Assembly (NCBI GenBank): GCA_003427395.1
Contig: BFEA01000024.1
Location: 4,617,871-4,681,870 of the forward strand
Reading direction: 5' to 3'
Origin: Chara braunii
Lineage: Eukaryota > Plantae > Charophyceae
DNA: 64,000 nucleotides
The position numbers and the translations under genes were made by a program. Below the pieces are notes generated by a model. The model saw nothing but the letters and a program-made list of their open reading frames with translations, was not told where the DNA came from and searched no databases. Below are positions 16,729 to 59,270 of the stretch, piece after piece; positions within the stretch are counted from its first letter, which is position 1, and the number at the start of each line of letters is the position of its first letter.

Positions 16729-17277
16729 GAAAAGAAATGCCGACCTTAATGAACAGAGGATAATATCGCTGTGATGTATGTGTGTGTGTGAGAGAGAGAG
16801 CGAGAGAGAGGAAGAGAAATGCCGACCTTAATGAAGAGAAATTAGAAGAGTGCCGAGTGCTCCTCCAGCTCAGCCTAGCGTTTTGTAGAAGATGCGGGAG
16901 ACAAAAGAATAAAGGAAAAGAAAAAGTACGAAACCTAAGATCGATAGAGAGAAGCAGGACGGGAAAAAATATGCTGTGTTTGTTCGATATCCTCCGAAAC
17001 AGTGAACCTCGGAGCAAACCGGCAGCGAGGCGGAGTGAAAATCCACGAGGAGGGGTGAAGAGAAGTAGAGAACGGAACAACAGCAGATCAGAGAGGGCAA
17101 GCGAGATCAGCAAAAGGCTAGCGACCTCGCACGCGCGCGCGAGAGAGAGAAAGAGAGAGAGTGAGAGAGTAGATTTAGAAGAGAATGAGAGAGAGAGAGA
17201 GAGGAGATTTGGAAACGAGAATAAATTACGGCAAAAAATAAAGAAATGGCAGTATCCGATGGATATGCTAACAGCAC

Positions 17278-18279
17278 CTGTAAGAATGAATACATTAAGC
17301 AAGTGCTCATGGAACGGGGTCCCGACCAGACATTGATGCAAAAAGGATCAAACGGTTCGGCTGCTGCCTCGTCCTCCACGGTCCCAGACTCCGACCCGGC
17401 TGCCACGTCAGCCCCGCCTTCCGACCCCGCCTCGTCGCCAATGCTGGAAGCATGGTAAAGAAGTCGGTCGATGATATCCGACATGGCGTCTGTTCCTCCA
17501 TGATCGGCAGTTCCTTGACTGCTAAGACTTCTTGCGCTTGACGTTGTTGTCAACACCGCCGCACCTCCACTTCCACCCACACTCCCCTCCCTCCCTCCCC
17601 GTTCTCTTTCTCCTCCTCCCACCTTCCTCCCGTCCAGAGTCGGGCTTCGTACTCTCGGAAGGGTTGTTCCCCCTCCCTCGCCTCCTTGCAGTTGTTGCCC
17701 GGTCGCCGCCCCTTCTCCTCCGCCGCCATCTCCTGCTGCCACTGCTACACCCCCTCCTACTTTTCCTCCTCCTCCAGCACCGCTATTACCACTGCCATGG
17801 CCAGTCCCTCCTCCACCAACCATGGAACTACTACCAATAGTCCGCCTGTCAAAACTCGTACTCCTCCCCACCGAGTCCGACGATCCGGCCGTAGAAGCAC
17901 GGAAAGCCGACGACTGGTCGCCCCCGCCTGCTCCGGATCCCGACTGCGCTAGTTCCCCTGATGGTGGTGCTATCCAACTAGCCGTCCCGGGGATCGAGAA
18001 CGAAGTGCCACGTTGCCCTCTCGCAGCTGTAGAAGATAGCTCATATGCCCCTGCTGTAGTGGAGGAGGTCGCTGCCGTGGCCCCCCCCTTCTCCCCAGCA
18101 GCTGCTGCTTTCCCACCTCCCCTCTCTCTCCTCATCGTGGCTGCCAATTGATCCTGCAGGGTGGCCATCGCCAGAGCTCCCGTTCCCGCCCTTTGCGCAT
18201 GCTTCGCCGCCGTCAGCGGGTCCCCGCCTTGACTCTGACTCCGCCCAGAGCGCGCCGATGGATCCGGAAAAGACGCCAT
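17278..18279 (-). CDS. Exon 1 of branched-chain-amino-acid aminotransferase-like protein, with long Gly/Ser/Ala-rich N-terminal extension
   Basis: Runs from ATG at 18279 (MASFPDPS) to CAG|GTG at 17278, 334 codons. Ends INVWSGPRSMSTCLMYSFLQ, the WS.PRS.ST.LMYSF.Q motif of this family, and joins exon 2 in frame. The true start codon is uncertain. Confidence 0.85.
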
Positions 18280-19071
18280 CGCGAATATCCACCTCGCAGC
18301 GCAAATCGACAAAATTTACGCTCACGAGCCTCCTCTCGAATCCAGATCTCTCTCTTTTTTCCTTCGTTTCTTTTTTAGCCTCCAATCCCGATCTCAATTT
18401 AACGGCTGAAAGCAATCTCCGCCGGTCGGAGTACGGTCACACCACTACGTAGGTAGATAGGCGAAGCGCCAAACCGACACACGTCCTTCCAACAAACGTA
18501 CCCCCAACAGACAGGACACACTGAGAACCCATGACACCCCACCTACCTACCAGGTATGCGAAGGGTCCATTATTCAGTGTGCATTCCAGGAAGGCTCTCA
18601 AACTAAAAGCACGGCAGCAGCACTCTCGTTGAGGGCGACCCCAGCTCTCCGTTCGAACCCCCAAACGCAGCAGAAGAGAACTGCCGTGGTTCGAACGGAC
18701 AATCGCTGAAACGCACGGACAATCGAATCTTGAACACAAAAGGGGAAAAAAAATAAAAAAAAACAAAAATCGACTTGACAATCGGACAATCGAAAGACGA
18801 GAAAGTGCGCGCACGAACGAAAGAATGGATGGACGAAATAGTTCACAAATCTTGGTGTCAAGATAAACACTGCACAATCTATCTATCGAGGAGGGTTCTT
18901 TGCGTCAGTGCTCATCAGAGAGTTCATGGCGTAGGAACAAGTGGCAATCTTGCGATTTTCTTCCAACTGTGCATTCGACTGCAAAATCCGGACGGCCATT
19001 CTCGACCAAGGGGGTAGTGCTACCCGCATTCAAACAACTCAACAAAATATCGACAGCCTGACGAGGAGAAA

Positions 19072-23258: not shown

Positions 23259-23598
23259 TCTGTGATACGCAGGGGGTTCCGAAAAATTAGCAGTCTCCCG
23301 ACTGCTGAGGTCATCATGTCTTAGATGATCGGGCGGCCTCTTCATCGTCAGCTGGCTCGATCATCTTCCTAATCTACGTGGATACATCTTGCATCCTCCA
23401 TCACCTCCTCTCATAGTATACATCCGATCGGGCGGCCCCTTCATCGTCAGCTGGCCCGATCGGTAAGAAATTTTTTTCTTTTTTTTTCTTTTTTTTTTTT
23501 AAACACAGCGCGTCTTGACGCGCGAACTTTGGGCATAGGAGAAGAAGATGATGAAGAGAAGGAGAAGGAGAGAAGCGGGGAGAGTTAGACGAGGGTGA

Positions 23599-24295
23599 TC
23601 AGAGGAAGTGATCGATGTCGGGATTGAGAGGGGGCGGAATAGGTGGAAGAAAAGCGGCCATTGCCGCGGGAGTCGGCGCCGCATCTTCCTCCTGGAAGTG
23701 GTGCTGGACGAACGAGGGATAGAGGAAGGCCCCCAGCACATGAGACAGGACACGTGGCGCCAGATCCGCCACCACTCGCACCACCCGCTTGCGCACCGAT
23801 CGGGGCCCTGGACCCGTTATCACCACACGAGTCTCGGTGTAAGGCCCTGCGCAGCATCGTTTCGTGGGCTGTGAATCGGTGTCCCCCCCGTCCTTGCACT
23901 CTGGCCACCAATCTGGCCGCCTGCTCCGCGTACTCGCGCACAAAACTTCGCGCCAGCTCCCGACTCGACGGTGGCAGGATCGTCAAGTCACCGATAAAGG
24001 TGGCGACGCTATACACGAAGTTGGGTGCCACTTGGAGCGCGTGGAACTCGATGAACACTCGAGTCGTCTCCCGCCCAGGCAACAGCATCACGTCCACGTA
24101 CACCCCCTCATACGTCAGCCGATCGCAAAGTAACGAGTACGCCGCCAGATCAGCAACCCCGGGCGCTGGCACGTTCACCTGCTGAATGTCGTACCGCAAC
24201 TGCCTTTCCTCATTGAACTGATGCCGCAACAAGCGATCTGCAAGCGACGTCTGGAAATGCTCGAGGGGCTCATGCTCCGGCTGGCGATGGTTCAT
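23599..24295 (-). CDS. Extra ORF of unknown function downstream of integrase (probably frameshifted)
   Basis: ATG at 24295 (MNHRQPEHEPLEHFQTSLADRLLRHQF...) overlaps the end of the integrase ORF. About 150 aa of globular-looking sequence, with a likely continuation in the 23599-23943 frame. Confidence 0.5.
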
Positions 24296-25480
24296 CCTGC
24301 TCCCTGAAACTCTCAGCACCAATGGACGAGGCCGATCGGGAAGAGGAGGAAGACGAAGAAGGAGAGGATGATCTCGTAGGAGCGGGGGTCCGTATGGGGC
24401 CTAGCGATGGCTGGAAGGGCCGGAGCGAAGCAGCGTGCTGTGTCAGCGGTCGGGCCTGGGAGTTGTGACGGGGAATCAGCTTCACGAAGTACTGTCCCTG
24501 TGCGCCAACTTCCGTTACCTCGTAACTGCCTGTGTAGCGCGGGTGGATCTTGGAGGAGCGCGCGGATTTCCGTACCTGTTCCAAGTCCCCAATTTTATAG
24601 CGACGGAGTGGTCCAGTGGACGCATGTCGGTTCTCATAATCGCGGATCTGCCGTTGATGCGTCCGATCTACGGCCCGCTGTCGCCGGCGAGCTAACGGGG
24701 GATAGGCCCTAGCCATTAAGTCCATGTAGTGGCGGGCCTTATCTCTGTGTTGGGCCCGTGTTGCTCTAACTTCCGTACCTACCAAGGGGGACAAATGCAC
24801 CCAAGGGACACGATTGGTTCTCAGTTGGAAGGGGGACACCCCAGTACTATCGTGTGGGGTAACCAGATAGACGGCCAAAATGTGGTCGACAATGACAGGC
24901 CAGCGCCGGGTATCTCCCGCAGTGATATTCCGTCTAAGAGCGGTCTTAATCAGTCGGTTGGCATTCTCTACCAGGCCATTTGCTTGAGGCCAATGCCCCG
25001 ACGAGTAGATAATCTTAACGTCCGCCCTGACCAGGTGACGTTCTACTTCGCCTTGAAATTCCGACCCATTGTCCATGTGTACCTCTTCTACGTCTAGATG
25101 CGTGCACAAAAATCGGTTTACGTACCAGGCTACCTCCTGCGAATTCCGACTGGTCATAGGGTACGCCTCGATCCATTTCGAAAAATGATCGATGGCCACT
25201 ACAAGAACATTGAGCTCTCCCTGATCGACGGGACCTCTCAAACGTTGATATCCGTCGTGTCGATGCTAACCCTCTGAAAGGGGCACTCTACATGAGTAGG
25301 CACCATCGTTCGAGGCATCTGTACCGGCGCCTTGTCCACCACGCATGCCGGGCAATTCTGGACGATGTATTTCACATCTTCCCGAATTCCCGACCAGTAC
25401 CATCCATTCTTTTCGATGGCTTTTTCCGTGTACTTGATCGCGAAATGGACCGCATCCTCTTCATGAGCGGCTCGTGTCCA
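24270..25480 (-). pseudogene. Ty3/Gypsy integrase (H2C2 zinc finger, DDE core, GPY/F-like motif; one frameshift)
   Basis: AHEEDAVH...WYWSGIREDV...CPAC; SIDT, IDHFSKW, MDNGSEF, NGLVENAN; YTGSYEV. No chromodomain seen. Confidence 0.9.
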
Positions 25481-25759
25481 ATCGAACCTAGCGAAAGGGT
25501 GCGGAACCGTCAACCAGCTAGTCCCTCCGTCATCATCGACTTTTCGTTTTTGTAACGTCGGTCCCTGCCAGCGATAGTCCTGCGGCCGCTCCGTGACTCT
25601 CCGCCACTCGACTTTGGTAAGTTCTGACAGCGAGTCGCCTAACAGCCTCTGTAGCAACAGAAGGTCCGTCCAGACTTCTGCCCGACGGGCACTTAGCGCG
25701 AATCCGTCGGCGGTCCGTGCGTCCAGATACCGTTTCTCGGTAGGGACCTGGTCCGTTCT

Positions 25760-25921
25760 GCAGTTGGGACAGACCCACGTCTTTTCACTTCGGTACCTAA
25801 CGCATTGTCCGTGGGATTTGACCGCTTGACACTGACTACACTGCACCCACAAAAGAAAATTGGGCCCTCCCGAATGTGACCCTTCTTGGTCCGGGACCAT
25901 AGGCAAGGTACAGAAGAAACA
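25760..25921 (-). other. PHD finger (C4HC3) inside Pol, between RNase H and integrase
   Basis: CFFC-x23-CSQC-x5-H-x2-C-x8-WVCPNC, in the same frame as the integrase zinc finger. Confidence 0.8.
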
Positions 25922-26129
25922 GAGACTTAGATGTGTTTCAGGGGACGAGTAGGGACTAGACGAGAGAGCGAGGGAGTTGGATGAAGGCAAAGAGATAGCG
26001 TCCGCCATCTCCGGCAAGACCTCCATTCCGGACTCAGGCGTCGTCCTTGCACAACACATGTAGCTCCCCGTAGCGTGGTTTCGTCGCCGCGGCTTCTGGC
26101 CTCCACGGAATGAGTCGCTCGTTGGCGGG

Positions 26130-27500
26130 GCACTTGTTGGGCGGCAGGAGGCGCGTCAATCCATCGGCGTTGCCATGCTGCCGCGTGGCACGGTGGCGGA
26201 TGTCGAAGTCATAGTCCTGCAGACGCACCACCCACCTTCCTAGCGTCCCCGTGTAGTCCGTGTTGTTGCGTAGGGACAACAACGACTGATGATCCGTTAC
26301 CAGCACAATTTCTGGCCGTAAAGATACGGTCGGAAATGCTGAATCCCCCACACCACCGCCAGGCATTCGCTTTTGCACGCTTCGTAATTAGCCTACGCCT
26401 GGCTCAGCGTCTTGGACGCATACTCAATGACGTGTTCCCTTCCGTCTGCCCCGTGCTGAGTCAGCACCGCCGATATCGCCTGCGGCTGCCAGTCGGTGTA
26501 TAGTGCGAACGGTCCTGGTGGGGCGGGACGCACCAACACAGGAGCAGATGTCAGAGCCTCCTTCAACGCCTGAAACGCCGCTTCACATTCCGGCGTCCAG
26601 ATCAGCTGCTCCTCTTTCTTCTGCAGGTTCGTTAGGGGCTTCGCTATACTCGAACCCCTTGATGAAGCGTCGGTAATAGGATGCCAGCCCTAGAAAAGCC
26701 CGAACCTGGGTGAGTGTGACCGGCGCCGGGGATTCTTGAACTGCTGCCACCTTCCTCGGATCCGGTTTTAGTCCATCGACCGTGACGATGTACCCCAAGA
26801 ATGAGATCTCCGACAAGAAGAACTCGCTTTTCTCCAAGGCCACTTTGAACCCCGCATCTTTTAGTGCATGCAAAACCCACTCAATGTGTTCCACGTGGTA
26901 CTCGTGTGTTTTTGAAAAGACCAAAATATCATCCATGTACACAATCACGCAGAAATTGATCAGGGGCTGGGTTAGTCGGGTTTTGTTAACGAACTCAGCG
27001 AAGGCCATATTCATGGCCCGCTGAAACGTTGCAGGGGCGTTACAAATTCCCATGGGACACCGGACCCATTGCCACGTGCCCTCAAATAGGACAAAAGCGG
27101 TTTTGGGTCGGTCTTCCGGTCGGACTGCGACATGGTGAAAACCGCGTTGGATATCGAACTTGGAAAAGACTCGAGCAGACCCGATAGCATCTAATAAATC
27201 GTCGATTCGCGGCAAGGGATACACATCTTTGGTAGTCATAGCGTTCAATTAGTCGATACATACCCGGACCGAACCATTTCGCTTTGGCACGAGGACCACG
27301 GAAAAAGACCACGGTCCCAGCGATGGTTCGACCCACCTCAACCGCTCGAATTCCCATACCCTTTCCAACGCCAACTGTCTTTCTTTAAGGGAATATCGGT
27401 ACGGTCGGCAATGTATCGGGGCGTGATCCACGGTATCAATCGCATGCTGTATCAAAGGGGTTAGCCCTATGTCGTGGTCCTGAACACTGACGGCCTCAGG
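26130..27500 (-). pseudogene. Ty3/Gypsy reverse transcriptase and RNase H (frameshifted)
   Basis: VVLVPKRNGSVRVCID, YPLPRIDDLLD, PMGICNAPATFQRAM, YMDD; RNase H PFALYTDW...HVIEYASKTL...TDHQSL...HGNADGLTRL. Confidence 0.95.
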
Positions 27501-27991: not shown

Positions 27992-28870
27992 CACCATAGC
28001 CGGCCACCCCAACTCTTCTTCAACCTCCATCACCTACACCCATCCACCATAGCCGACCACTCCGACCCTTCTCTAACCTTCATCACCTACACCCATCCAC
28101 CATAGCCGGCCACCCCCAACCCTTCTTCCACCCCCATTACCTACACCCTTCCACCATAGACGGCCACCCCCAACCCTTCTCCCACCTCCATCACCTACAC
28201 TCATCCACCATAGTCGGCCACCCCCAACCCTTCTTCCACCATCACCTACACCCGTCCACCATAGTTGGTCATCCTAACCCTTCTTCAACCTCCATCACCT
28301 ACACCTGTCCACCATAGCCGGCCACCCCCAACCCTTCTTCCACCCCCATCACCTACACCCTTCCACCATAGCCGGCCACCCCCAACCCTTCTTCCACCTC
28401 CATCACCTACACTCATCCACCATAACCGGTCACCCCCAACCCTTATTCCACCTCCATCATCTACACCCGTCCACCATAGCCGACCACCTCCAACCCCTTT
28501 CTTCCTCCATCACCCACACCCGTCCTCCATAGCCGGTCACCCCGAACCCTTCTTCCACCGACATCACCTACACCCATCCACCATAGCCGACCACCCCCAA
28601 CCCTTCTTCCACCTCCATCACCTACACCCATCCACCATAACCAGTCACCCCCAACCCTTCTTCCGCCTCCATAACCTACGCCCGTCCACCATAGCCGGCC
28701 ATCCCAACTCTTCTTCAACCTCCATCACCTACACCCATCCACCATAGCCGACCACCTCGACCCTCCCTCAACCTCCATCACCTACACCCATCCACCATAG
28801 CCGACCACCCCAACCCTTCTTCCATCTCCATCACTTACACCCATCCCCCTGTAACCGACCACCCCAAACC
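27992..28870. repeat. ~60-bp tandem repeat array (~14 copies)
   Basis: Unit approximately CCACCATAGCCGGCCACCCCCAACCCTTCTTCCACCTCCATCACCTACACCCAT. Confidence 0.9.
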
Positions 28871-29037
28871 CTTCCTCGCCTATCACCTCCCTCATCCACT
28901 TGAGGGGCATAGGGGCCGCAAGGGGGAACGAGAAGTCTCGAGTAGGGCCGGTTAGGAAGGGGGCAAGGATCAAGGTCGATTAGGACGCGAGACCTGTTGA
29001 TCTCCATCCCTCTCCCTCTCCCTCTCCCCTACCCTTC

Positions 29038-29132
<95 letters not shown>

Positions 29133-29142
29133 NNNNNNNNNN

Positions 29143-29236
<94 letters not shown>

Positions 29237-30680: not shown

Positions 30681-32142
30681 TGTCCGCTTGCGCGGCCCCG
30701 CAGCGCCTACTGGTTTCCCGGGCACCCCCTCCGGTTTACCGTGCCCACCTCTCCTTTCAGCACCAGCGGTCTAAGAAGTACGGACCTTGTCGCCAAGTTG
30801 GCACGATGCAAAGCCCGGATTAGAAGTGTGGGCGGCCCAGTAGCAGTCTCGGGGTGGAACCGTGAAAGATAGCCAGCCCGCGTCGATGCAAGTCCAGAAT
30901 CACGGTGTGAGTGAGCGCAGGGCTGGTCAGGTACCCGAGGCTGAGGAGCGAGCTCAACACTGCTGTGGAAAACGGGCCGCCGCGCCCATAGACCGGACTC
31001 CTCGGGGTTTGGGCTTGACAGGGCTCGGAAGCATGCTCGACACAACAGACCCGAGCCTTTGAAGTTTGGAACATACAAGCTCAGAAACGAACGAACTGAC
31101 GCCTGCCACAAATTGGTTTCAGCGAGCTTCGAAGAGCGCGTGTACGCAGGCTCGAAATCGAGTTCGACTCACAAAGGTTCCTGAGAAGAAGCTGCCACTT
31201 TCAATTATTTATAGTCTAGAACAGACTTGAACAGGTTCAAAAACGAGTTTGACTCCACAGAGCTTCAGAAAACGAAATGCCACCTCCGACTCTTTAAGAC
31301 TTTTGGAACAGACTTGAACAGGTTCAGGCACGAGTTTGACACGACAGGGCTTCGGAAAATGAGATGCCACCTCTGACTCTTTAAAATTTTGGAACAAACT
31401 TGAATGGATTCAGGCACGAGTTTGATGCGACGGGGCTTCAGAAAACGAAATGCCACCTCTGTCTTCCGAGGTTTTGGACAGACTAGGACAGGCTCAAAAA
31501 GGACCTCGACATATTAACTGCCACCTCTGACCCTTTGAGATTATGGGACAAACTTGAACGAGTTTGACACGACAAAGCTTCAGAAAGACGAAATGCCACC
31601 TCTGACTTTCTTTAAAAAATTTGGGATAGACTTGAACAGGTTCAGGCACGAGTTTGACACGATGGGGCTTCGAAAAACGAGATGCCACCTCTGACTCTTT
31701 AAAATTTTGGAACAGACTTGAACGGGTTCAGGCACGAGTTTGACGCGACGGGGCTTAAGAAGACGAAATGCCACCTCTGTCTTCCGAGGTTTTGGACAGA
31801 CTAGGACAGGCTCAAAAAGGACCTCGACATATTAACTGCCACCTCTGACTCTTTGAGATTATGGGACAGACTTGAACGAGTTTGACACGACAGAGCTTCG
31901 GAAAAACGAAATGCCACCTCTGACTTCCGAGGTTTTGGACAGACTAGAACAGGCTAAAAAATGACCTTGACATATTTAAGCTGCAGAAAGCGAAATGCCA
32001 CCTTCGACTCTTTAAAAGCTTGGAACACACTTGAACAGGTTCAGAAAAGAGCTCGGCATATTAAAGCCGCAGAGAACAAAATGGGACCTTCAACTCTTTA
32101 AAAGCTTGGATCTGTCTGGTCAGAGAGCTTCGAAGCGCGAGA
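30681..32142 (-). repeat. Distal part of the 3' LTR (direct repeat of 60881-62023), with internal tandem subrepeats
   Basis: Identity starts exactly at TGTCCGCTTGCG (30681 and 60881) and ends at GAAGCGCGAGA. This copy is ~320 bp longer because of extra subrepeat units. Confidence 0.92.
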
Positions 32143-32143
32143 A

Positions 32144-32668
32144 GAGGTTGAGGGCCGAGGGGTTGAGAGGAGTCTCGAAGTAACTGCAGTTATCTTTGTA
32201 GCACCGGGAGCTTGGACAAAAGTCGTAGTACCCCTGGTCCAAGGACAAGGGGGTGGGCTGGATAGGCTGCTACGAGAGGCAAGAAAAATGCGAAGAGAGT
32301 GGATAGCTGAGGTTCGAAAACGATTTAGGTTTGTGGCTGTAGGAAAGGAGAGGTTCGCGGGGGAGAAAGAACTTCCAAAGGCGTGTTATCCGTTGACTGT
32401 GAGGGTGTTGTCTTTCATATTCCTAGGAACCAACGAAGGGAAAATAGTGAGGCTTCTAGAGAGGGGAAGGAGTTTGGGATTACCCTTTAGGGCCCTGTGG
32501 ACGCTGTATACGCATTGCATCGATCAGGGTATCCCTCCTCGTGGGAAGCTTTGGGGTATTTTTAGGAGATTGGGGTCCCTAGAGAAACCCTTCACTCTTT
32601 CATCAGAAAGATATCGCCAGTGGGTTTTTAAAACGGCGTCGGTAAATGGTGAGGTTCATACTCAGTGA
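32144..32668 (+). CDS. Accessory ORF (family B), C-terminal part; N-terminus displaced to 57849-57787 by the inversion
   Basis: The frame is open back to the breakpoint. LEVTAVIFVAPGAWTKVVVPLVQGQ resembles LEIRATIFLSEDAWTEVWRGLVTGQ, and LYTHCIDQGIPP resembles LYTRCVDAGVPP of the next ORF. Confidence 0.65.
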   Translation, partial: EVEGRGVERSLEVTAVIFVAPGAWTKVVVPLVQGQGGGLDRLLREARKMRREWIAEVRKRFRFVAVGKERFAGEKELPKACYPLTVRVLSFIFLGTNEGKIVRLLERGRSLGLPFRALWTLYTHCIDQGIPPRGKLWGIFRRLGSLEKPFTLSSERYRQWVFKTASVNGEVHTQ

Positions 32669-33245
32669 GAACGGGGCGGTAGAGTCGATAGAGGTCAGTG
32701 ACAAGGGGAAAGTTTTGGTTCCAGGGGACCCTCGTGTGACGCCCTACTGGATGNGCGTTGAGAAAGGCGAGGTCATCCGAGGAGGTGCATACGTGTGGGT
32801 TAGAGCTCGTCGGCTTACCTGGAAGGAAGGAGTGCGGAGAGGAGGCCCCCCTGACCTCGGTCGGTTCCTAGAGATTCGGGCTACGATTTTTCTCAGCGAG
32901 GACGCGTGGACCGAGGTGTGGAGGGGTTTAGTGACTGGGCAAGTGACCCATACGGAGTACCGAGAGTCCGCGAGGCTGGTAGCAAATAACCTGGTGCTGG
33001 CCGATTACGAGGAAGGGACTTTCGAGTCACGGACTCTAGTGTCCTTCGCAGAGCCTGGTGAGGTCCCTCGTGCGTCTGGGGTCCTTCATGCGAACTTACC
33101 CCAATTCTTGACCAACCCATTCTTAAGAGACACGGAGGAAATAGTAGTAATAATACTTAGAGCGGCTCGGGAGTCCAGGGTGCGGGCTAGGGGTTTGTTC
33201 TGGCTCTATACGCGGTGCGTGGACGCGGGGGTTCCCCCGGGCTAG
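32646..33245 (+). CDS. Accessory ORF (family B), unknown function; probably continues by frameshift into the 33215-33415 frame
   Basis: 199 aa. The ATG overlaps the end of the previous ORF. Motifs IFLS.DA and EVPRA are shared with ORFs 57836-58597 and 34704-35276. Confidence 0.65.
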   Translation: MVRFILSENGAVESIEVSDKGKVLVPGDPRVTPYWMXVEKGEVIRGGAYVWVRARRLTWKEGVRRGGPPDLGRFLEIRATIFLSEDAWTEVWRGLVTGQVTHTEYRESARLVANNLVLADYEEGTFESRTLVSFAEPGEVPRASGVLHANLPQFLTNPFLRDTEEIVVIILRAARESRVRARGLFWLYTRCVDAGVPPG

Positions 33246-33312
33246 GAGAGTTGTCTGCCATATTCAGGAGGTTGAGAGAATTTGAGGGGGTCAAACGTCG
33301 TGGACGTCCCGT

Positions 33313-33741
33313 ATGCTCGCCTCTTCGGGGAAGAGCAGGAGACGAACCGGCGTGGGTACGAAGCCCGATGATAAGAGGGGTTCCGGGGACTCTCTGGCGT
33401 CAGTGGAGCCTATAGTAGATACTGGGGAAGTTGTCCTTGTCACTCTACCGAGAGTCAGGTTGAAAGGGCCACCGAGGACCCTCCAGAGAGAAGAAGGGAA
33501 AATCCGACGCGGGAAGGCTTTCGTGCGATTAGCAATGAGTTGCGAGGGGAGAGTAGTGATTGGTGAAGCCCAAATTTTCCTTTCGAAGGAAGGCCTGATA
33601 GAAATAGCAAGGAGCTTGAGGACTGGAAAAGACCCTCTCTGGGACACGCGAGCCGTAAGGAATCGCCTGGAAGAGCTCGTAAAAGAGGTGAAGCCTCGCG
33701 AAGGGTGCCAAGAAAAATATAGAGTGACCTACGGGGGTTAG
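33313..33741 (+). CDS. Accessory ORF (family B-related), unknown function
   Basis: AQIFLSKEG...GKDPL...RVTYGG parallels VEIFLSPDD...GKDPL...RVEYRG in 34704-35276. Confidence 0.55.
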   Translation: MLASSGKSRRRTGVGTKPDDKRGSGDSLASVEPIVDTGEVVLVTLPRVRLKGPPRTLQREEGKIRRGKAFVRLAMSCEGRVVIGEAQIFLSKEGLIEIARSLRTGKDPLWDTRAVRNRLEELVKEVKPREGCQEKYRVTYGG

Positions 33742-34703
33742 GAGGAGATACCTCAGTTCGCCACCAATGAGCCGGTGGGAGTTCCCCGTTTCATCTTTGA
33801 ACGGATCTACCTCTCAGGGTCAAGAGGGCGGTGGGAAGAAGGATTTTCATCCTGAGCCAGTTCCGGTTTACGAGGTCGGACCTCCATTCCTTGCTAACGT
33901 GGTGTTTCCGGGATTCCTATCGAGACGATTGGTCGACTCTAGAGGACTTGGGTTACACCTTTGAAGGGTGGGGTCGACACGCAAGGGAATCTAGGATATC
34001 GTGGAGATACTTGGGTAAGATCTGCGAAGGGGAGTTAGAAAGATTGAACCCCTCGGATCTCATTCGGATCGCGATTGCTTGTCGCCGACGGAAACTAGGG
34101 GATGAGCGAGCCTCACCTTGGCGAACTTGTGGGGTTGGAGAGGGTGAGAGAAGAAGTTCTCCGGATCCTTACTCTATGTTAGGAGGAAGAAAGGAGAGCA
34201 AGGCATAGGTCCCTAGCTAGGATCAAGCTACTGGAGACAACTGCGATCACAATCCTAGACGAGTTAACGATAGATCTTCTCACTCGGCGAGGGGAGAGGG
34301 TATGAGAGCTACGTTCGTCTCCAATAGGATTTGTTGGGAATTGGAGCCTTGCGAAGACGACAACAAGATTCGGGTCAAAGGAGGTCCGCCGGCTGGCCTT
34401 ACGGGAAAAGAAGGATTTGGACCACACTGGCTTTTCGGTTTACATTAGAGACGCAAGTGGGGTGAGGTCCTCAAGGACTTAGAGAGAACCGTTGCTGGAA
34501 GTGGAGAGAAGGTTTGAGGAAGACTCTAGGTATCTAGGAATCCCGCTCGCATCTAGGATACATCTTGTAGAGACCCGATTTTGGGATAGGACGGGAGAGT
34601 ACGAAGGGGCCTTGCGCCAGACGCTGCGCGAGGAAGGAGAGATCGATCGCGCTATGTGTGAGGACTCGCTGGTAGAGGCCGCCGCGAGGTTGGCCGGCGT
34701 GAG

Positions 34704-35276
34704 GTGAGGCCCCCAATGATTAGATACGATAGGGGGAACCCAGTGGGTACGTTAGAGAGGGCTTGGAAATCGGGAGAGAGGTATGGAGTAACCCTCCCCA
34801 TGATTAGAGGGGAAGGAGTGGTGTCTACAAAGTTCTTCAAGATCTACGGGCAAGAGACGGTGGTGCGGTTCTCGGTGGTCTCCAAAGGAGGAAGCCGCAC
34901 TAGGAAGGTTGAGATCTTTCTGTCTCCCGACGACCGACGATTCTTCGCAACCGAGTTAGCGGAGGGGAAAGACCCCCTAGGCATTGCCCGAAAGGCCCTA
35001 GACGGACTGCGGAGATTGAGAGGGGGCGGCACCGAGGGACGCGTGGTTGATCGAGTGGAATACCGAGGTAGGTCAGAAGTTCCAAGGGCGGCTCACGGGA
35101 GGACTTGGGAGATCCCAACCTGGGCCTACCGTCTACTCTACGCCGATGACGCAGCCGTGAGGAGGTTCCGAAATAGGGGACAGGTGATAGAGAAATTTCC
35201 GTTAGGTGAAGAAGGGGGGCACGGACTGTTCACCCAGTGTTGGGAATCGCAAGAAGACACAGACCTCGAGTGGTAG
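34704..35276 (+). CDS. Accessory ORF (family B-related), unknown function
   Basis: 190 aa. The start overlaps the stop of ORF 34492-34707 (GTGA). Contains IFLS, GKDPL and EVPRA motifs. Confidence 0.55.
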   Translation: MRPPMIRYDRGNPVGTLERAWKSGERYGVTLPMIRGEGVVSTKFFKIYGQETVVRFSVVSKGGSRTRKVEIFLSPDDRRFFATELAEGKDPLGIARKALDGLRRLRGGGTEGRVVDRVEYRGRSEVPRAAHGRTWEIPTWAYRLLYADDAAVRRFRNRGQVIEKFPLGEEGGHGLFTQCWESQEDTDLEW

Positions 35277-48884: not shown

Positions 48885-49740
48885 GGAGGTGGATAGGTGC
48901 GTAATGTTTATGTTGCACCTACCCGAGGAGAAAAGGAAGGAGGTCCTCGGAAATGCCCCAAGAGACTCTGTCAATTTCGAAAAAGTCGCCGAAGTGGTCT
49001 TCACGGGGGAGGAGTGGACGTAAGAGAATACATGAAAGAAACCCTGGACATGACGCTCCGTAATGTCCGCCACGCACGGAACGATGGCCCTAGGGGGAAT
49101 GATAGGCCACCCCCTGGTCCACTTGGTCCACCTGGTCCATGATGGGGAAAACGGCAAACGGGATGGAGAAATGAGTCGGGAAACCAAGGAGGCTGGAGAA
49201 ATGATCGAGAGATGGGAGGAAAACGAGGCCCCGATTGAGTGAATTCTCATTGGAAGGACGCTAGAGATGGAAGGTGGGGAGACACGCCTCAAGTTAGGGT
49301 CATTGGGGCGCGACCTGAGGTCAGGGCTCCCCCACGACCTGCACCGCCGGCTCCCCCTGTGCCTATAGCCGCTGCGATGCAAGGGGGTCCGCGCCCCAAC
49401 AACCTGCAAGCTCGAAGCGGGTGTGTTTACTACAATGAAGAAAGTCACATCAAAAGGGACTGTCCTCTTCTCACGGAGGCCTTAAGGTTGGGGGTGGTCA
49501 AGCTAAATGAAAACAAATGGGTTGAATGGGGAGATGGTGGAGAGGCGGTCTCCTTCTACCCGTCAATGAAGGTGAATGCGGACAAGAGAATAGCCCTCCA
49601 GGAGGCGAGGCTGGGGAAGAACCTGAAACTGGGGGCACCTCCAACTCGTCCCATGTCGAAATGACGGAATCCCCAGGAGGTGTGTCCATTAGGGAACCCC
49701 AGGTGTCCAGCATCAAGTTCGTTGAGACCCAGCCTTAAGA
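48885..49740 (+). pseudogene. gag, 3' part with degenerate CCHC zinc knuckle
   Basis: EVDRCVMFMLHLPEEKRKEVLG continues the 5' part. CVYYNEESHIKRDC matches CX2CX4HX4C with one C-to-Y change. Confidence 0.8.
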
Positions 49741-49804
49741 AGAGGGGCCTTGCCTAAGGGTAAAAACACAGGCTGGGTCCGAGACGTCTAAAAGCCAAGA
49801 GAAC

Positions 49805-52800
49805 GTGGCGGAAAATGGAGGAGGAAGGAGCGGCGACGACGACCAACCAATGGTCGATGCCAAAGTTGCGGAAGAAAAGAAGGAGGAGCCCACTTCACCC
49901 AAATCGCCAAGGATCACGGGGGCGAAAAAGTTCGAAATGAAATGCACCTTGGATGAGATCGACACGGTAGCTCCCCTTAGGAGAACCCTGATGCAGCCTA
50001 TGCAGTGCACACTTCTGGAATACCTAGCAGCCAGCAAAAGCGCTAGGGAAGAACTCCTAAGCATCACGAAGAAGGTAAGAGTCTCGCTCGTCGGAGGACC
50101 CACGGTACCGGGGGAGGGTCCAGCCAAGGAAAAAGTACAGTCCTCCCGAATTATTATGGATGAGCTGCCGACTAACTTCTTCTCGGGGGAGGAGGCCAAA
50201 AAGTTCTATGTATTAGGGAGCGACCAGCTAGAAGCGGTGGTGAGTGAGAAGAAGATGAGGGCTCTGGTAAACAATGGGTCCGAATCCACGGTATGTAGAG
50301 ACTCTATTGCCCGGGAGCTAGGCTTGGAGATAGGTAGGGGGGTATCGATGTCAATGGTCGTAGCGGATAACAAGCTACAACCGGCAGAAGGGGTGTGTCA
50401 CACCCCTGTGATCGAGGTTGCGGGCGTCGAGGCCTCGGTCCCAATATTTTCGGTGAAAGAGTATTCCTCCGAGTTGATCCTCGGTAGAACCTGGCTGAGC
50501 GCGGTTCACGCTACCACGGTTGACTTACCTGATGGAAGTCAGACCCTCTCCATCCAAAGTCCGGATGGAATCCGGGTGGTCCTGAAGACCGTGGACGCGC
50601 AAGATGAGCGGAACCGGACCAACATTCCTAGACGGAAGGGGAACCAATCGAGGGTATGCCAAGTCCGTCTGGAGGAAGCGCTCTTTACGGATAAGGAACC
50701 CCCGGGGGACCGATTAGAGGTCGAAGATGTCGGGGGCAGGATGGTGATCAACGGGATAGGGTACGAAAAGGAGGACGAGGAGGAGGAGTTCAGTGGATGT
50801 GTGAGACTGTCTTTTTTGGAGGAATCCCCCTAGTCGGCGGAATAAAGAACCACAAAACTGTGGCGGAAAAGGTGAAACCCGCCACGGTCAGCCGGGATAA
50901 AACGGGGGAAACTTCGATATCGGAAGAAGAAATCGCCGATATCATCAGGAAATGGAAGGAAACCGAAGGGCAGAGAATTACCGCAGACAGGTTAGCTAAG
51001 ATGGACATAGGGGACGGGAACCTCACGAACAAAGAGAGGGAGTTCGTAACGATGACCCTAAGGGGCTACGACAAGGCCATCGCCTTCGATGACTCGGAAA
51101 GGGGGAGAATCGACCCGAGATATGCTAAGCCAGCCCGGATGCATGCGATTCCTCACGTACCTTAGAAAGATAGACCCCAGTGGAAGTATGCTCAAAAGGA
51201 GAAAGAGGAGATAGTGACATTTATTAAAGAGAAGATAAGGACTTTCGTCGCAGAACCTTGCGAGAGTGCGTACTCTAACAAATGGTTCTTTCTGAGGAAG
51301 GGAGGGAGCGACAAGTTGAGGTGGATCCAAAATCTCCAAAGAACCAACACCGTGACCATAAGGGGCGTAGGGTCCATACCTGAAGCAGTTCTACTCACTG
51401 AAGGATCGGCTGGCCGCTCAATCTACTCAATCTGCGACCTCTTTTCGGGGTATGATAAGATTCCCTTGGACTACCGGGATAAGCACATGACCGCCATGCA
51501 TACGCCTTTGGGACTGGTCCAAATGATGGTGGTACCAATGGGGTGGACGAACGACGTGGCGGTGTTCCAAAGAGCCATGATTGCGGTCCTCAAGGAATTC
51601 ATACCTAGAAGGGTGAAAGTCTTTCTTAACGACTTCCCGATAAAAGGGTCAGTCGAACGGAATGAGACAGAGGTCTTTCCCGGGGTAAGAAAGTTCGTAG
51701 TGGGCCACATGAGCAATGTCAGGGATGTCCTGGTGAAATTAGACGATGCCAACCTTACGGTGAGCGGAACTAAGAGTCGCTGGGGCGTGTCGTCCATCAA
51801 GATATTGGGTTTCATTTGCGACAAGGATGGGCGGAGGCACGATCCCGGGGAATTAGAGAAATTGATGACCTGGCCATCGGCGCTCAAGTCGATAACGGAA
51901 GTTAGGCAGTTTCTAGGGGTGGTGGGCTACTGGAGGATCTTCATAAAGGCCTACGGTGAGAAAGCGGAACCCCTTAAACGACTCCTTAGGAAATCGGGAG
52001 GATGGATTTGGGGGGAGGAGCAGGCCGCGGCCATGGAAGCCCTAAAAGAGGAATTCCGCGAAGGTTGGCAGGTCCTACGAGTTCCGTTCTTCGAGGACGA
52101 GGAGTATCGCCCATTCATAGTTTCTACGGACGCGGGGCCTTACTCGTTAGGGGGCCTCTTATCTCAAAAGGATGGAGCAGGGAAGGAGAGACCGTTACGG
52201 TTCGAGAGTAGGACCTTGAACCCCGCTGAGCGAAATTATAGCCAGTTCAAAAAGAAAGTATTGGGAGTGTTGCATTGCCTGAAGGCCTTCAGCCATTACA
52301 TATACGGGCGACAATTTCTCCTAAGGGTTGACCCCACCGTAGTGGCAACAATCCTTCAAAAGGACTTCTCATTGACCAATCCGACCATCGCTCGGTGGAT
52401 GATACATATTAGACTACGATTATAGGGTCGAGAGGGTATCCGGGACCAAAAACCAGGTTGAGGACGGGTTGTCCCGACTTCCCATCCGGGAAGAGGACCT
52501 ACCTAAGCTCGAGAAAGTGACATTGTCGATGGCCAAGGGGGAGGTAATCCAAGTAGCGGCTAATAGGGTACAAGTGGCAGTACCCATCCGGGGAGAGGGG
52601 GGGACTCATAGAACCTTCCTCGCCAATCTCTACGACGGGAAGTACCGGGACATAGGGCTGTATTTAGCCGGTAGGGAGAGAGGGACCGAGAGAATCCAGC
52701 AAGAGGCGCTAAGATATTGCCTGCGAGGTGACCATCTCTTTAAGAGACCGACCAAGTTTGCGATTCTCATGAGAGTGTTGTGCGATCCAGAGGAAAGAAG

Positions 52801-53870
52801 AGCGATCATAGAGGAGCTGCACGATGGGGTCGTCGGGGTCATAGAGGGGTAAAGGGGACCTTCGATAAAGCCTGTAGGCTCTATTGGTGGGACTGGCAGT
52901 ACGCGGAGGTCGAAAGGTATTGCTCGACCTGCGAAGCTTGCCAAAAAAGGGCTACCGTTCGCTACAAGGAGCCCCTAGTTCCGTCACTACCCACAGTTCC
53001 GGGCGAAAAGGTCCACGTTGACTTGGTAACCATGCCTAAAGGAGTCGGGGGACTCCGGTACATAATCAACTTCCGTGACGATCTCACTGGATTCGTGGAG
53101 GCGAAGGCCATTAAGAAAAAGACGGTCGAGGAGGTGAGTGACTTTCTCCTAGAATACATCGTTAGTTACGGGTGTGTCGGAAAGATAGTCATGGATAGGG
53201 GGGCGGAATTTTTGAGCCAAAAGGTCAAGACATTGTTGGAAAAAACAGGAATCAGGGCGGTTTATACAACCGCCTATCACCCTCAAAGCAATGCGCCGGT
53301 AGAGAGAGGTCACCAAACGCTTGTAGATGCCCTGGCAAAATGGTGCAAGGGTCGCGCAGAGCAATGGCCGAAGTATTTGCGGTACGCGGTTTGGGCCGAC
53401 AACATCACAGTCAAATCAAGCACGGGATACCCCCCTTACACCCTTTGGTTCGGTAGGCATTGTCCCCTGCCCATCGAGTTCCACGTCGACACTTGGACAA
53501 GTGTCTCATGGAAACCAACATGACCAGGTGTGAGCTGTTGGGGGCCCGGATATGGCAAATAGCAGTAAATCTGGACGTCGGACTTACAGAGGCGGAAGCA
53601 AACATCGAGAAAGCGAGGGTGAAAGGGAAAGAAAGGTGGGACAAAAATCTACGGGTCCGACGAACGCCGATAAGGATTAACGACCTAGTTTTAATGTACG
53701 ATTCATCGTTAGAGAAGACCTGGAGCCGAAAATTGGCAAACTGATGGATGGGGACGTATAGGGTCCTAAAGAGATTGGATGAGAGGGCTTACATGCTCGC
53801 TGAATTAGATGGGAGTAGGCTACGGGACCCTATCGCGGGGGCTCGTCTCAAAATCTTCCGATCGAGAGGG
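49805..53870 (+). pseudogene. pol: aspartic protease, RT, RNase H, integrase (stops, frameshifts, catalytic D-to-N changes)
   Basis: ALVNNGSES...LILGRTWL; DLFSGY...PMGWTN...FLNDFPIKG; STDAGP...ERNYSQ; LHDG...H...YWW...CSTCEAC, HVDL, MDRGAEF, PVERGH; WMGTYRV. No chromodomain or additional RNase H seen. Confidence 0.95.
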
Positions 53871-54618
53871 ACCCTTGGGGAGGAGCCGAAGCGGGAAGAG
53901 AAGGAAGTTATTGACACGGAAGTGGCCGTTACCTACGAAAAGGGGGAGACCTCCAATCAAGGGGCCTCTTCTCGACCACCAAAGAGGGGGTTTAAGGTTC
54001 GAAAACTTACCCTACCAAAGACCCATGGAAAGAAGAAACGAACCAGAGAGGATGACGGTGACACAGACCGGTTAGAAAAATGCAGGCTAAGAGAAAGAAG
54101 GAACACCTCAAGGAAAACCTTGAGAATCAAACGGGAGAGAGAAGAGAGAAAACGAAAAAGGGAGAGGCGCGAGAAGAGGATGAGGAGACGGAAACGGGGA
54201 TAGAGTCGCTTGAGGAGAAAAGGGAGAGTGATGTACCATAGTCAGAGAAACATGTGTAGTACCATGGTTAGAGGGGACACGGATCCGAAAGAAAGAATGT
54301 ACCATAGTTAGAGAAACATGTGTCATGGGAGCAACGAGTCGTAACCCCAAAGGAGATATTGTACCATTGTTAGAAACGACCAGTGTCCCGGGGAGGGGTG
54401 CGCCGTGTGTCATGAAGAGTGCCGTAACTAGGCGATACGGTTAAGACTGGTAGGAAAGAAAAGGCGACCGTAATCTAACCGGAGGGTATGGGATGAAACC
54501 AACCATGGGAAAATGAGAGATACCTTCCCACGGTAACAATTGGGTGAGGGGCAAAGGTCAAAAAAGAAGGCTACGGGAATGCTCGCTCGAGACGGCGAGA
54601 AATGGGGTGTGGGCTGGT

Positions 54619-57835: not shown

Positions 57836-58597
57836 TCAAGGAACACCATTCATTCTAAAACATTTTTTGGGGCACTCCGAAGACCCTTTTGTAGCCGTAA
57901 TCTTGTCCGCCCTCGCGGTCCCGAGTCGATTCCTTAAAGATTCCCACACGAATCCTGCAAGCTTTAATTCTGTACGGTACTGGGTTATCCACGCAGTATG
58001 TGTAGTACCAATGGAGCGACCTAAATGATAGATGCCACCCCCTTCCCGCACTATGGACCGCACAACCTTCTCGTACCGCTCCTCCTTTCCGCTTACCCTC
58101 CGGAAAACGAAGGATGGAAATATGGCCTTGACGCACCCCGTGGCGCGAGGGTACTCCTCGTCTCGAGCGCAAGTCACCCGCACCTCGATCGGTGGGCAGT
58201 AGCGAAGGGGCTCCGCCTCAAAGAGCTGCCTCAGAATCAGACCCGCTCGAGTCTCCCAATGATCCGCACGGTACCAACCTAGGACCAAGTTAGTGACGTA
58301 ATATACTCTGGCCTCCCTACTCAGATAGACCGTTCCTTCTGCACGGACCACTGTTCGTCGAGGCCTCTTTCCGTTCTGGGGCCTATTCCGAGAGCACCTG
58401 TCCCCCTCCCAAGTTCCTACTGCGAACCGCGCCCAAAGGAAAACCCCCTTCTCTAGCTCTAATCCTCTCTCGCGACCGGCCAGATATCTCTCAGTGCGAT
58501 GATCTAAGGGAACGGTAAAGCACTCCCTGTCCTTGCTTAGATCCACCTTCTCGATTTGAACCCCCTCCTCGTCAGTACCTTCTATGATCCTAACCAT
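57836..58597 (-). CDS. Accessory ORF (family B), 253 aa, unknown function
   Basis: MVRII..., GVFLWARF..TWEG, GTVYLSREA and EEYPRATG align with MVRFI..., GAYVWVRA..TWKEG, ATIFLSEDA and GEVPRASG of 32646-33245. Confidence 0.7.
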   Translation of the reverse strand: MVRIIEGTDEEGVQIEKVDLSKDRECFTVPLDHRTERYLAGRERGLELEKGVFLWARFAVGTWEGDRCSRNRPQNGKRPRRTVVRAEGTVYLSREARVYYVTNLVLGWYRADHWETRAGLILRQLFEAEPLRYCPPIEVRVTCARDEEYPRATGCVKAIFPSFVFRRVSGKEERYEKVVRSIVREGGGIYHLGRSIGTTHTAWITQYRTELKLAGFVWESLRNRLGTARADKITATKGSSECPKKCFRMNGVP

Positions 58598-58955
58598 TCC
58601 CCTCGACTATCTCCTCGATGATTTGAACTAGTGTTCTCCAACCGTCCGAACCGTCAAGGTACGCCTCCGGAGTAGTAGGGGCAGGCCGCTCCCCTCGCAA
58701 GTACGTCCGATACCCTAGCGAGTAGAAGTACTTAATCTCGTAGGCTCCCAGCAGTTCCCTCTCGAGCTGCGTGTGATTGACAGCTTCTTCCCAACTATCC
58801 GAAAAGCCTGCCCCTCTATCTGCACCCTCTTCTATATACAAAGCTATGTCGAAATCGCCAGTCCACCAGTAAAAATTGTAGCACCACATGTCCACTCCTC
58901 CTCGATCACCCACACTAATCCCCGCAAGTTCAACTTCTAGAGCCCTCAAACTCAT
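58590..58955 (-). CDS. Accessory ORF (family A), 121 aa, unknown function
   Basis: Paralog of the adjacent ORF (WEEA...YE.KYFYSLGYRTY.RG.RPAP...AYLDGSDGWR.L). ATGA start/stop overlap at 58955-58952. Confidence 0.7.
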   Translation of the reverse strand: MSLRALEVELAGISVGDRGGVDMWCYNFYWWTGDFDIALYIEEGADRGAGFSDSWEEAVNHTQLERELLGAYEIKYFYSLGYRTYLRGERPAPTTPEAYLDGSDGWRTLVQIIEEIVEGNG

Positions 58956-59270
58956 GGAGTTGCCGCTCTCACTATTCTCTCTACGACCCCTATTAGCACC
59001 CTCCAGCCGTCCGATCCGTCGAGATAGGCGTCCGAAACTACCGGGGCGGGGCGACCTCCCCTGGGGTAGGTTCGGTAACCTAAAGAGTAAAAATATTTAA
59101 ATTCATAGCCCCTCAACTCCCCCCTTGCACCGCGAGAGTGACCTATCGCTTCTTCCCATCCACGAAGGAAATCCTCCCCTTGTCCATAGTCGAAATGTGT
59201 AGCACCATACGTCAATATCCCCGCTCGTACACACGCTAATCCATTCCGGGACGGTTTCTAAGCTCATGCA
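58952..59270 (-). pseudogene. Accessory ORF (family A), frameshifted paralog
   Basis: The C-terminus lies in the 58952-59215 frame. The N-terminal ISVCTSGDIDVWCYTF (compare ISVGDRGGVDMWCYNF) lies in another frame. The 5' boundary is approximate. Confidence 0.65.

Follow-up and report, generated by a model that had tools for sequence, protein, structure and literature searches.

A divergent PHD-type finger on the integrase of a Chara braunii Ty3/gypsy element, encoded behind an invariant UGA and a candidate +1 recoding site

The 64,000-nucleotide stretch of Chara braunii DNA analyzed here (the window) carries a dead copy of a Ty3/gypsy element in which a PHD-type finger and the integrase are encoded together in the +1 frame behind an invariant UGA; in our judgment it is about an even call that ribosomes cross this break by programmed +1 frameshifting aided by a predicted stem-loop.

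The element lies on the minus strand from ~27500 to 24270 and is decayed, with the order reverse transcriptase (RT), RNase H, finger, and integrase; the order RT-RH-INT, with an H2C2 finger and the D-x35-E signature, places it in Ty3/gypsy. All of the following parts are on the minus strand. The RT core (RVT_1, 26784–27245; Pfam E = 1.3e-31) has a stop just upstream (27251–27249) and a frameshift near 26650. The RNase H domain (26151–26524) was located through same-family gene models (84–91% identity by tblastn), on which Pfam RT_RNaseH is found, and it is broken in the window copy by a stop (26395–26393) and a frameshift near 26306, at both of which family contigs differ. It is followed by a 38-codon tail in the RNase H frame (26037–26150), which overlaps the open +1 frame and is also present in the gene models P0005, P0010, P0011, P0012, and P0015. 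Between the finger and the H2C2 finger is an integrase N-terminal extension domain (25511–25678), delimited by structural alignment of a model, and then come the H2C2 zinc-binding domain (25343–25465; Pfam Integrase_H2C2 E = 2.9e-7) and the integrase core with D-x35-E kept and a weak SH3-like C-terminal domain (24273–25238; Pfam rve E = 3e-7, SH3_Tf2-1 E = 0.09). A frameshift near 25240, private to the window copy, separates the core from the H2C2 domain. In-frame stops (27251–27249 and 26395–26393) and frameshifts (near 26650, 26306, and 25240) make the window copy a dead one. The majority of family contig depth differs from it at the 26395 stop and at all three frameshifts, the comparison having ended short of the 27251–27249 stop. 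Every same-family gene model seen is likewise broken, or spliced around breaks.

No LTR pair was found flanking the window copy, no gag or protease of the PHD-bearing element was found in the window, and the gag parts of the gene models P0003, P0006, and P0103 had no match there; the copy looks truncated. An extra sense ORF after the integrase (23588–24304, minus strand), which belongs to no Pfam family, has an internal deletion near 23843 relative to gene models. This ORF is several hundred residues longer in the same-family models P0005, P0006, and P0009. The original prediction that a C-terminal chromodomain is lacking agrees with Pfam, which gave no Chromo match in the window integrase ORF or in P0003–P0006 and P0016, and all of the same-family gene models scanned (4/4) are without it. 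The window element therefore does not have the mark of a chromovirus, a chromodomain at the integrase C-terminus.

Other features were observed around this element. A 54-bp tandem array of 16.5 copies (27992–28874) stands directly upstream of the pre-RT region and is followed by a (CT)n tract (29038–29232). A second, unrelated gypsy element on the plus strand (49739–54203; protease, RT, RNase H, H2C2, and rve) has no PHD pattern, and antisense ORFs near 57836–59096 come after it; a repeat pair (30681–32142 and 60881–62024, 90–94%) may represent its LTRs, and ORFs of a similar look are present at 32102–35276 on the plus strand. Between 39400 and 48700 there is an 80-bp satellite whose higher-order period comprises several units and which forms two large inverted blocks on either side of an assembly gap. 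An exon-like ORF (17107–18315, minus strand) that ends 'INVWSGPRSMSTCLMYSF' before a likely intron is probably an exon of a host gene.

The finger itself (25921–25760, minus strand) follows the pattern C-x2-C-x23-C-x2-C-x5-H-x2-C-x10-C-x2-C, with ligand codons starting at 25921, 25912, 25840, 25831, 25813, 25804, 25771, and 25762, and with a Trp two residues before the seventh ligand. It had been predicted that a complete C4HC3 pattern lies upstream of, and in frame with, the integrase H2C2 finger, and this is what we found, the two sharing one open frame (26155–25241). The bounds first given for this ORF (25238–26059) were not confirmed, both ends being private to the window copy: the ATG at 26059 is missing from ~94% of contig depth, and the stop at 25240–25238 comes after the frameshift, which most family contigs lack. 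A loose C4HC3 pattern had a single match in the six frames of the window, namely the finger, and the C4HC3 pattern had no match in 200 triplet-shuffled windows or in 20000 residue shuffles of the ORF. PHD fingers have their eight ligands in C4HC3 order, as here, and feature an aromatic residue two positions before the seventh ligand; the finger has W-V-C at this ligand, and the column is aromatic in 9/9 alignment rows. RING-variant (RINGv) domains are also of C4HC3 type with the spacing C-x1-C-x7-H, and this assignment was rejected because the spacing in the finger is C-x2-C-x5-H.

The resemblance to canonical PHDs is distant. The proposed comparison with Pfam PHD (PF00628) did give a match, but its score of 13.2 bits is below the gathering cut-off of 24 (E = 0.093), so that we file the finger as a divergent PHD-type finger and not as a Pfam member. 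With a profile made from 28 retroelement PHDs the finger scored at noise level (domain E = 0.15), and it was not among the matches of a profile made from 29. The best matches among solved structures were PHDs of the ING family (E = 0.06 and 0.4), and in an Atlas look-up, whose best score of 0.80 is to be taken as a lead only, the 10 best family-named matches all belonged to the PHD family or clan. An AlphaFold2 model of the region was built from a 13-row alignment (pLDDT 77.5). Its residues 7–70 were aligned with the PHDs of Pygo, AL3, PHF7, JADE1, and TAF3 (VIA-align; Z 4.6–5.1, rmsd 2.0–4.0, 46–53 residues), the underlying alignment being PHD-rich, and its residues 96–211 were aligned with residues 9–104 of the foamy virus integrase (Z 9.0, rmsd 3.1, 92 aligned) and with the Ty3 integrase (Z 7.1), residues ~95–210 thus matching the N-terminal extension and zinc domains of these integrases. 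The finger domain folded alone reached a pLDDT of 72.7, and Foldseek gave no match for it at E 0.001, with RING and PHD mixed. Both models lean to the PHD fold because canonical PHDs were abundant in the alignments behind them. The finger probably folds as a cross-brace PHD, and the C4HC3 finger is likely a very divergent PHD-type domain.

In the RNase H frame the 38-codon tail ends with TGA (26036–26034), and it is the +1 frame that encodes the finger and the integrase. The stop is part of GCC-TGA-G (26033–26039, minus strand), a candidate +1 shift site. It had been thought that the PHD finger is embedded in Pol between RNase H and integrase; the order is correct, but the finger is out of frame with RNase H, both in this copy and in the family. 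Our variant data derive from two runs of a single sample, as collapsed contigs (683 and 399), in which CpG decay and lineage differences are not separated. There was no variant at ≥6% at 26044–26019 in either set, so the stop is invariant in the family, and contigs of neither run had an indel at ≥6% within 25750–26190. Indels at ≥20% within 24900–26900 were confined to 25239–40, 26306, and 26647–50. In one contig of a separate study (X5, record 12), which covers 25576–26686, there are three gaps, all at 26306 and 26647–49. One low-depth contig per run carries a 102-nt in-frame deletion (25934–26035), and this deletion does not join the frames. These data have shown that the frame offset between RNase H and PHD-integrase, together with the invariant stop, is family-wide and is not damage of one copy. 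The stop was also considered as a decayed Arg codon; this was rejected, since the CpG decays at 26051, 26054, and 26058 stand at 94–98% while the stop has no variant. Four distant relatives (P0075, P0081, P0096, and P0098) have RNase H, PHD, and integrase in a single frame, which indicates that the break is lineage-specific and not general.

All 12 proteins recovered with the region were Chara braunii gene models (71–92% identity). The whole finger is present in none of the 14 same-family gene models, its first half is present in none of them, and six models with the RNase H end skip the finger; it is missing from public annotation because gene predictors splice over the break. A one-off capture of the finger was rejected because the finger is family-wide. 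Indeed, the original prediction was to stand or fall with a PHD- or RING-like match and with the presence of the segment in other family copies, and it stood on both, the matches being weak but consistent at the levels of sequence, language model, and fold.

The family survey of ligands and frame revealed no variant in the eight ligand codons among 38 variant rows at ≥6% in 25750–26190, a count that, taken alone, has a chance P of ~0.1–0.2. Downstream of the stop there are 26 variants, of which 16 are synonymous when read in the PHD-integrase frame (expected 0.33, P = 0.003), compared with 4/26 in the RNase H frame and 7/26 in the third frame, and the same holds for polymorphic variants alone (14/21, P = 0.002). 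Upstream, at 26037–26190, the RNase H frame has 7/12 synonymous variants (P = 0.09). Purifying selection has thus been shown to act on the PHD-integrase frame. This bears on whether the frame break arose by accident in a founder copy, which then spread by means of another element's integrase while its own finger and integrase were passengers. Such an accident would be consistent with a dead window copy, with same-family models that are all broken or spliced around breaks, and with distant relatives in one frame. However, the polymorphisms, found at 5–89%, are all on the break-bearing background and are enriched in synonymous changes, which means that selection went on after the break arose; the accident is largely refuted by this and we consider it very improbable.

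How, then, would the PHD-integrase be translated? We propose that some ribosomes would pause at GCC-UGA and slip +1, as at the NCC-UGA sites of antizymes; the bulk of the polyprotein would end after RNase H, and a minority would take the PHD-integrase into the particle. By analogy with antizymes, we see an evenly balanced chance that slippage at GCC-UGA yields PHD-integrase at a low ratio. A UGA ending ORF1 and an ORF2 in the overlapping +1 frame, both conserved, are an arrangement of the antizyme type. Ty1, Ty3, EST3, PA-X, and XXXYYYZ are other frameshift motifs, and none of them was found in the frame overlap. Of the seven P-site codons that Ivanov and Atkins (2007; PMC1874602) give for antizymes, none is GCC; in their account, G after UGA is an efficient termination context and the mammalian stimulator begins 3 nt after UGA.

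The candidate stimulator at the Chara junction is a predicted 19-pair RNA stem-loop (26029–25979, minus strand), which starts 4 nt 3' of the stop. In a 200-nt context 17 of its 19 pairs have a probability of ≥0.92, and it ranks third by z among 101 windows across pol, with z of −2.9 in a 60-nt window, −0.8 at 40 and 80 nt, and −1.25 at 101 nt. Polymorphic sites fall on 4/13 unpaired and 0/38 paired positions (P = 0.003; post hoc, for a structure predicted from the window copy), and when only synonymous sites are taken, the counts are 3/6 and 0/11 (P = 0.03, post hoc). No compensatory change was seen in the stem-loop among family variants, one position of a predicted pair (25985) carries a near-fixed family difference, and Rfam had no match at the junction. 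In ~6% of a single raw RNA run there were three reads over 2 kb and no joint, too few to inform.

The main rival to frameshifting is reinitiation, by which the PHD-integrase would be a separate cistron and ribosomes that stop at the UGA would restart at an AUG lying 7 nt (26026) or 25 nt (26008) further on. The two AUGs share the PHD-integrase frame, each has G at −3 and +4, and family variants are absent from both, and P0019, the closest relative outside Chara, is a predicted stand-alone ORF starting 26 residues before the finger, as known from the protein alone. On the other hand, no start codon overlaps the stop and the single upstream ATG is private to the window copy, while both downstream AUGs overlap predicted stems. 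The core motif of a TURBS is UGGGA, and it is absent from the 124 nt before the stop. Free integrase would, we infer, also need its own route into the particle. We regard reinitiation as unlikely.

Alternatively, a spliced or subgenomic RNA might supply the PHD-integrase, or splicing might join both frames. Acceptor-like AG sites rich in pyrimidines end at 25956 and 25926, 38 GT/GC-AG pairs would be able to join the frames, and gene predictors place a splice at the junction in several models. However, every frame-joining donor is of poor consensus, and the best donor-like site (26050) is not frame-joining because its introns to the good acceptors would be 95 and 125 nt long. Synonymous variants in the +1 frame are also enriched upstream of the acceptors: in the stretch from the stop to the best acceptor 6/9 are synonymous in the +1 frame (P = 0.045), and this stretch looks coding in that frame. 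An origin by splicing or from a subgenomic RNA is improbable in our view, and a small remainder of the probability falls to none of these readings. Returning to frameshifting, the full proposal is that in this charophyte gypsy lineage a +1 frameshift inside pol, at GCC-UGA with the stem-loop, gates the PHD-integrase so that it is dosed apart from RT, and we would put its chance slightly short of even. If it is true, both the position of recoding and the P-site codon are absent from the literature searched.

A homologue search of 1.84 billion representatives gave 89 matches. The metagenomic protein P0019 has 32% identity over 198 aa and retains all eight ligands and the same unusual C-x5-H spacing. 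It groups with two Chara families (SH-aLRT 99, on a long branch) in a quick integrase tree, which was limited to search matches (58/103 proteins had enough cover, 8 redundant ones were dropped, and 50 were kept). The second Chara family retains at least the C-terminal half of the finger (P0013). Among 95 relatives, the full PHD pattern was found N-terminal to the H2C2 finger in 6 and C-terminal to the integrase zinc finger in 19. Pfam PHD matches above the cut-off at the N-terminal position were found in P0028, P0030/P0096, P0075, P0078, P0081, and P0089. Judging from these protein sequences, a PHD N-terminal to the integrase recurs in several metagenomic relatives, and the layout is not new. 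Accessory domains seem to have a hot spot in the interval between RNase H and integrase in the relatives P0026–P0094. In P0039, a cytosine methylase-like domain was observed between RNase H and integrase. No locus was found in metagenome contigs scanned with the window protein or P0019, nor in viral contigs scanned with alignment A1.

As to the function of the finger, it would remain on the mature integrase and tether it to a histone tail or to another chromatin protein. That the finger tethers the mature integrase to chromatin in place of the missing chromodomain is a tentative suggestion, which we hold with somewhat less than even confidence, and the mark cannot be called. A cage Trp two residues before the His is a feature of H3K4me3 readers of the ING/BPTF type. 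The original prediction noted its absence correctly: at the position of the ING2 Trp, two residues ahead of the His, the finger has a Lys. The absent cage Trp does not by itself make the domain an H3K4me0 reader, and the originally suggested preference for unmodified H3 met with neither support nor contradiction. An Asp after the third Cys and a Pro/Gly before the last Trp have a role in H3 binding, and the finger has neither, while most relatives keep both.

It is also possible, whatever the mode of translation, and again we would put it below an even chance, that the finger reads no histones and is now a structural or protein-binding module for folding, oligomer, or particle contacts. This would fit how far the finger has diverged from canonical retroelement PHDs, down to noise level, and its loss of residues characteristic of H3K4me3 and of H3K4me0 readers alike. 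Against this, the finger sits on the integrase of an element that lacks a chromodomain. Moreover, canonical PHDs are found at the same site in relatives, and a profile made up largely of these best matches the fingers of KMT2D, CHD4, WSTF, DPF3, KDM5A, and BAZ2.

The N-terminal fusion of a PHD finger to integrase, as originally predicted, is real, and it is already in print for Gypsy-7a_cRei of Chlamydomonas reinhardtii, for which a PHD within Gag-Pol was described, the figure legend giving the order GAG, PROT, RT, RH, PHD, INT (Craig et al., 2023; PMC9940879). Targeting was proposed for that element, whose intergenic insertions are enriched 2.6-fold (PMC9940879). Like the Chara element, it is a gypsy element with a PHD between RH and INT; unlike it, Gypsy-7a_cRei is described as one Gag-Pol polyprotein, whereas in Chara a stop and a change of frame precede the PHD-integrase, whose finger is highly divergent, the two elements being compared by description only (PMC9940879). 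The PHD-integrase layout is thus already known, and by itself our finding extends the Chlamydomonas case to Chara and metagenomic elements; what appears to be new is the divergent finger and the family-wide split of pol with a candidate recoding cassette. Among the titles and abstract openings searched, we found no PHD-integrase element in Chara and no programmed break between RNase H and integrase.

PHDs are described as common accessory domains of Chlamydomonas elements (PMC8557442) and as widespread in retrotransposons (PMC6673714; 10.1101/2021.11.30.470311; PMC2836005). In REM1, CR1, Chlamys PLEs, Ginger1, and cnidarian retroelements the PHD is likewise a captured accessory domain, but according to these descriptions it sits elsewhere, in a separate ORF, in ORF1, inside RT/EN, or at the transposase C-terminus (PMC8557442; PMC6673714; PMC2836005; 10.1101/2021.11.30.470311). 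The word PHD is absent from the main text of the plant LTR survey (PMC6317226) and from that of a paper on DNMT retrotransposons (PMC5890265). The chromoviruses Chlamyvir, Tcn1, Tekay, Reina, Galadriel, as well as CRM, which are reported to bear a C-terminal chromodomain on the integrase (Neumann et al., 2019; PMC6317226), share with the Chara element the Ty3/gypsy order RT-RH-INT and a putative chromatin reader on the integrase. Their reader is a C-terminal chromodomain, whereas none was found in the Chara element and its finger is N-terminal.

The Chara junction resembles the antizyme cassette in that ORF1 ends in UGA, ORF2 overlaps in the +1 frame, and an RNA structure, at the Chara junction a predicted one, begins 3–4 nt beyond the stop (Ivanov and Atkins, 2007; PMC1874602). 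It differs from the cassette as presented there in its unlisted P-site codon GCC, the G after the stop, a simple stem-loop in place of a pseudoknot, and no known link to polyamines. In Ty1, Ty3, and other LTR elements, a frameshift sets the ratio of the downstream enzymes (Atkins et al., 2016; PMC5009743), as we propose for the Chara junction. Frameshifts of the Ty1/Ty3 type, and the LTR-element frameshifts treated in that review, lie between gag and pol, while the Chara break is inside pol, and for this reason we give the split pol greater weight than the layout. If the proposed recoding is true, the dose of integrase would come under a second point of control, and a streptophyte alga would provide a new natural +1 site.
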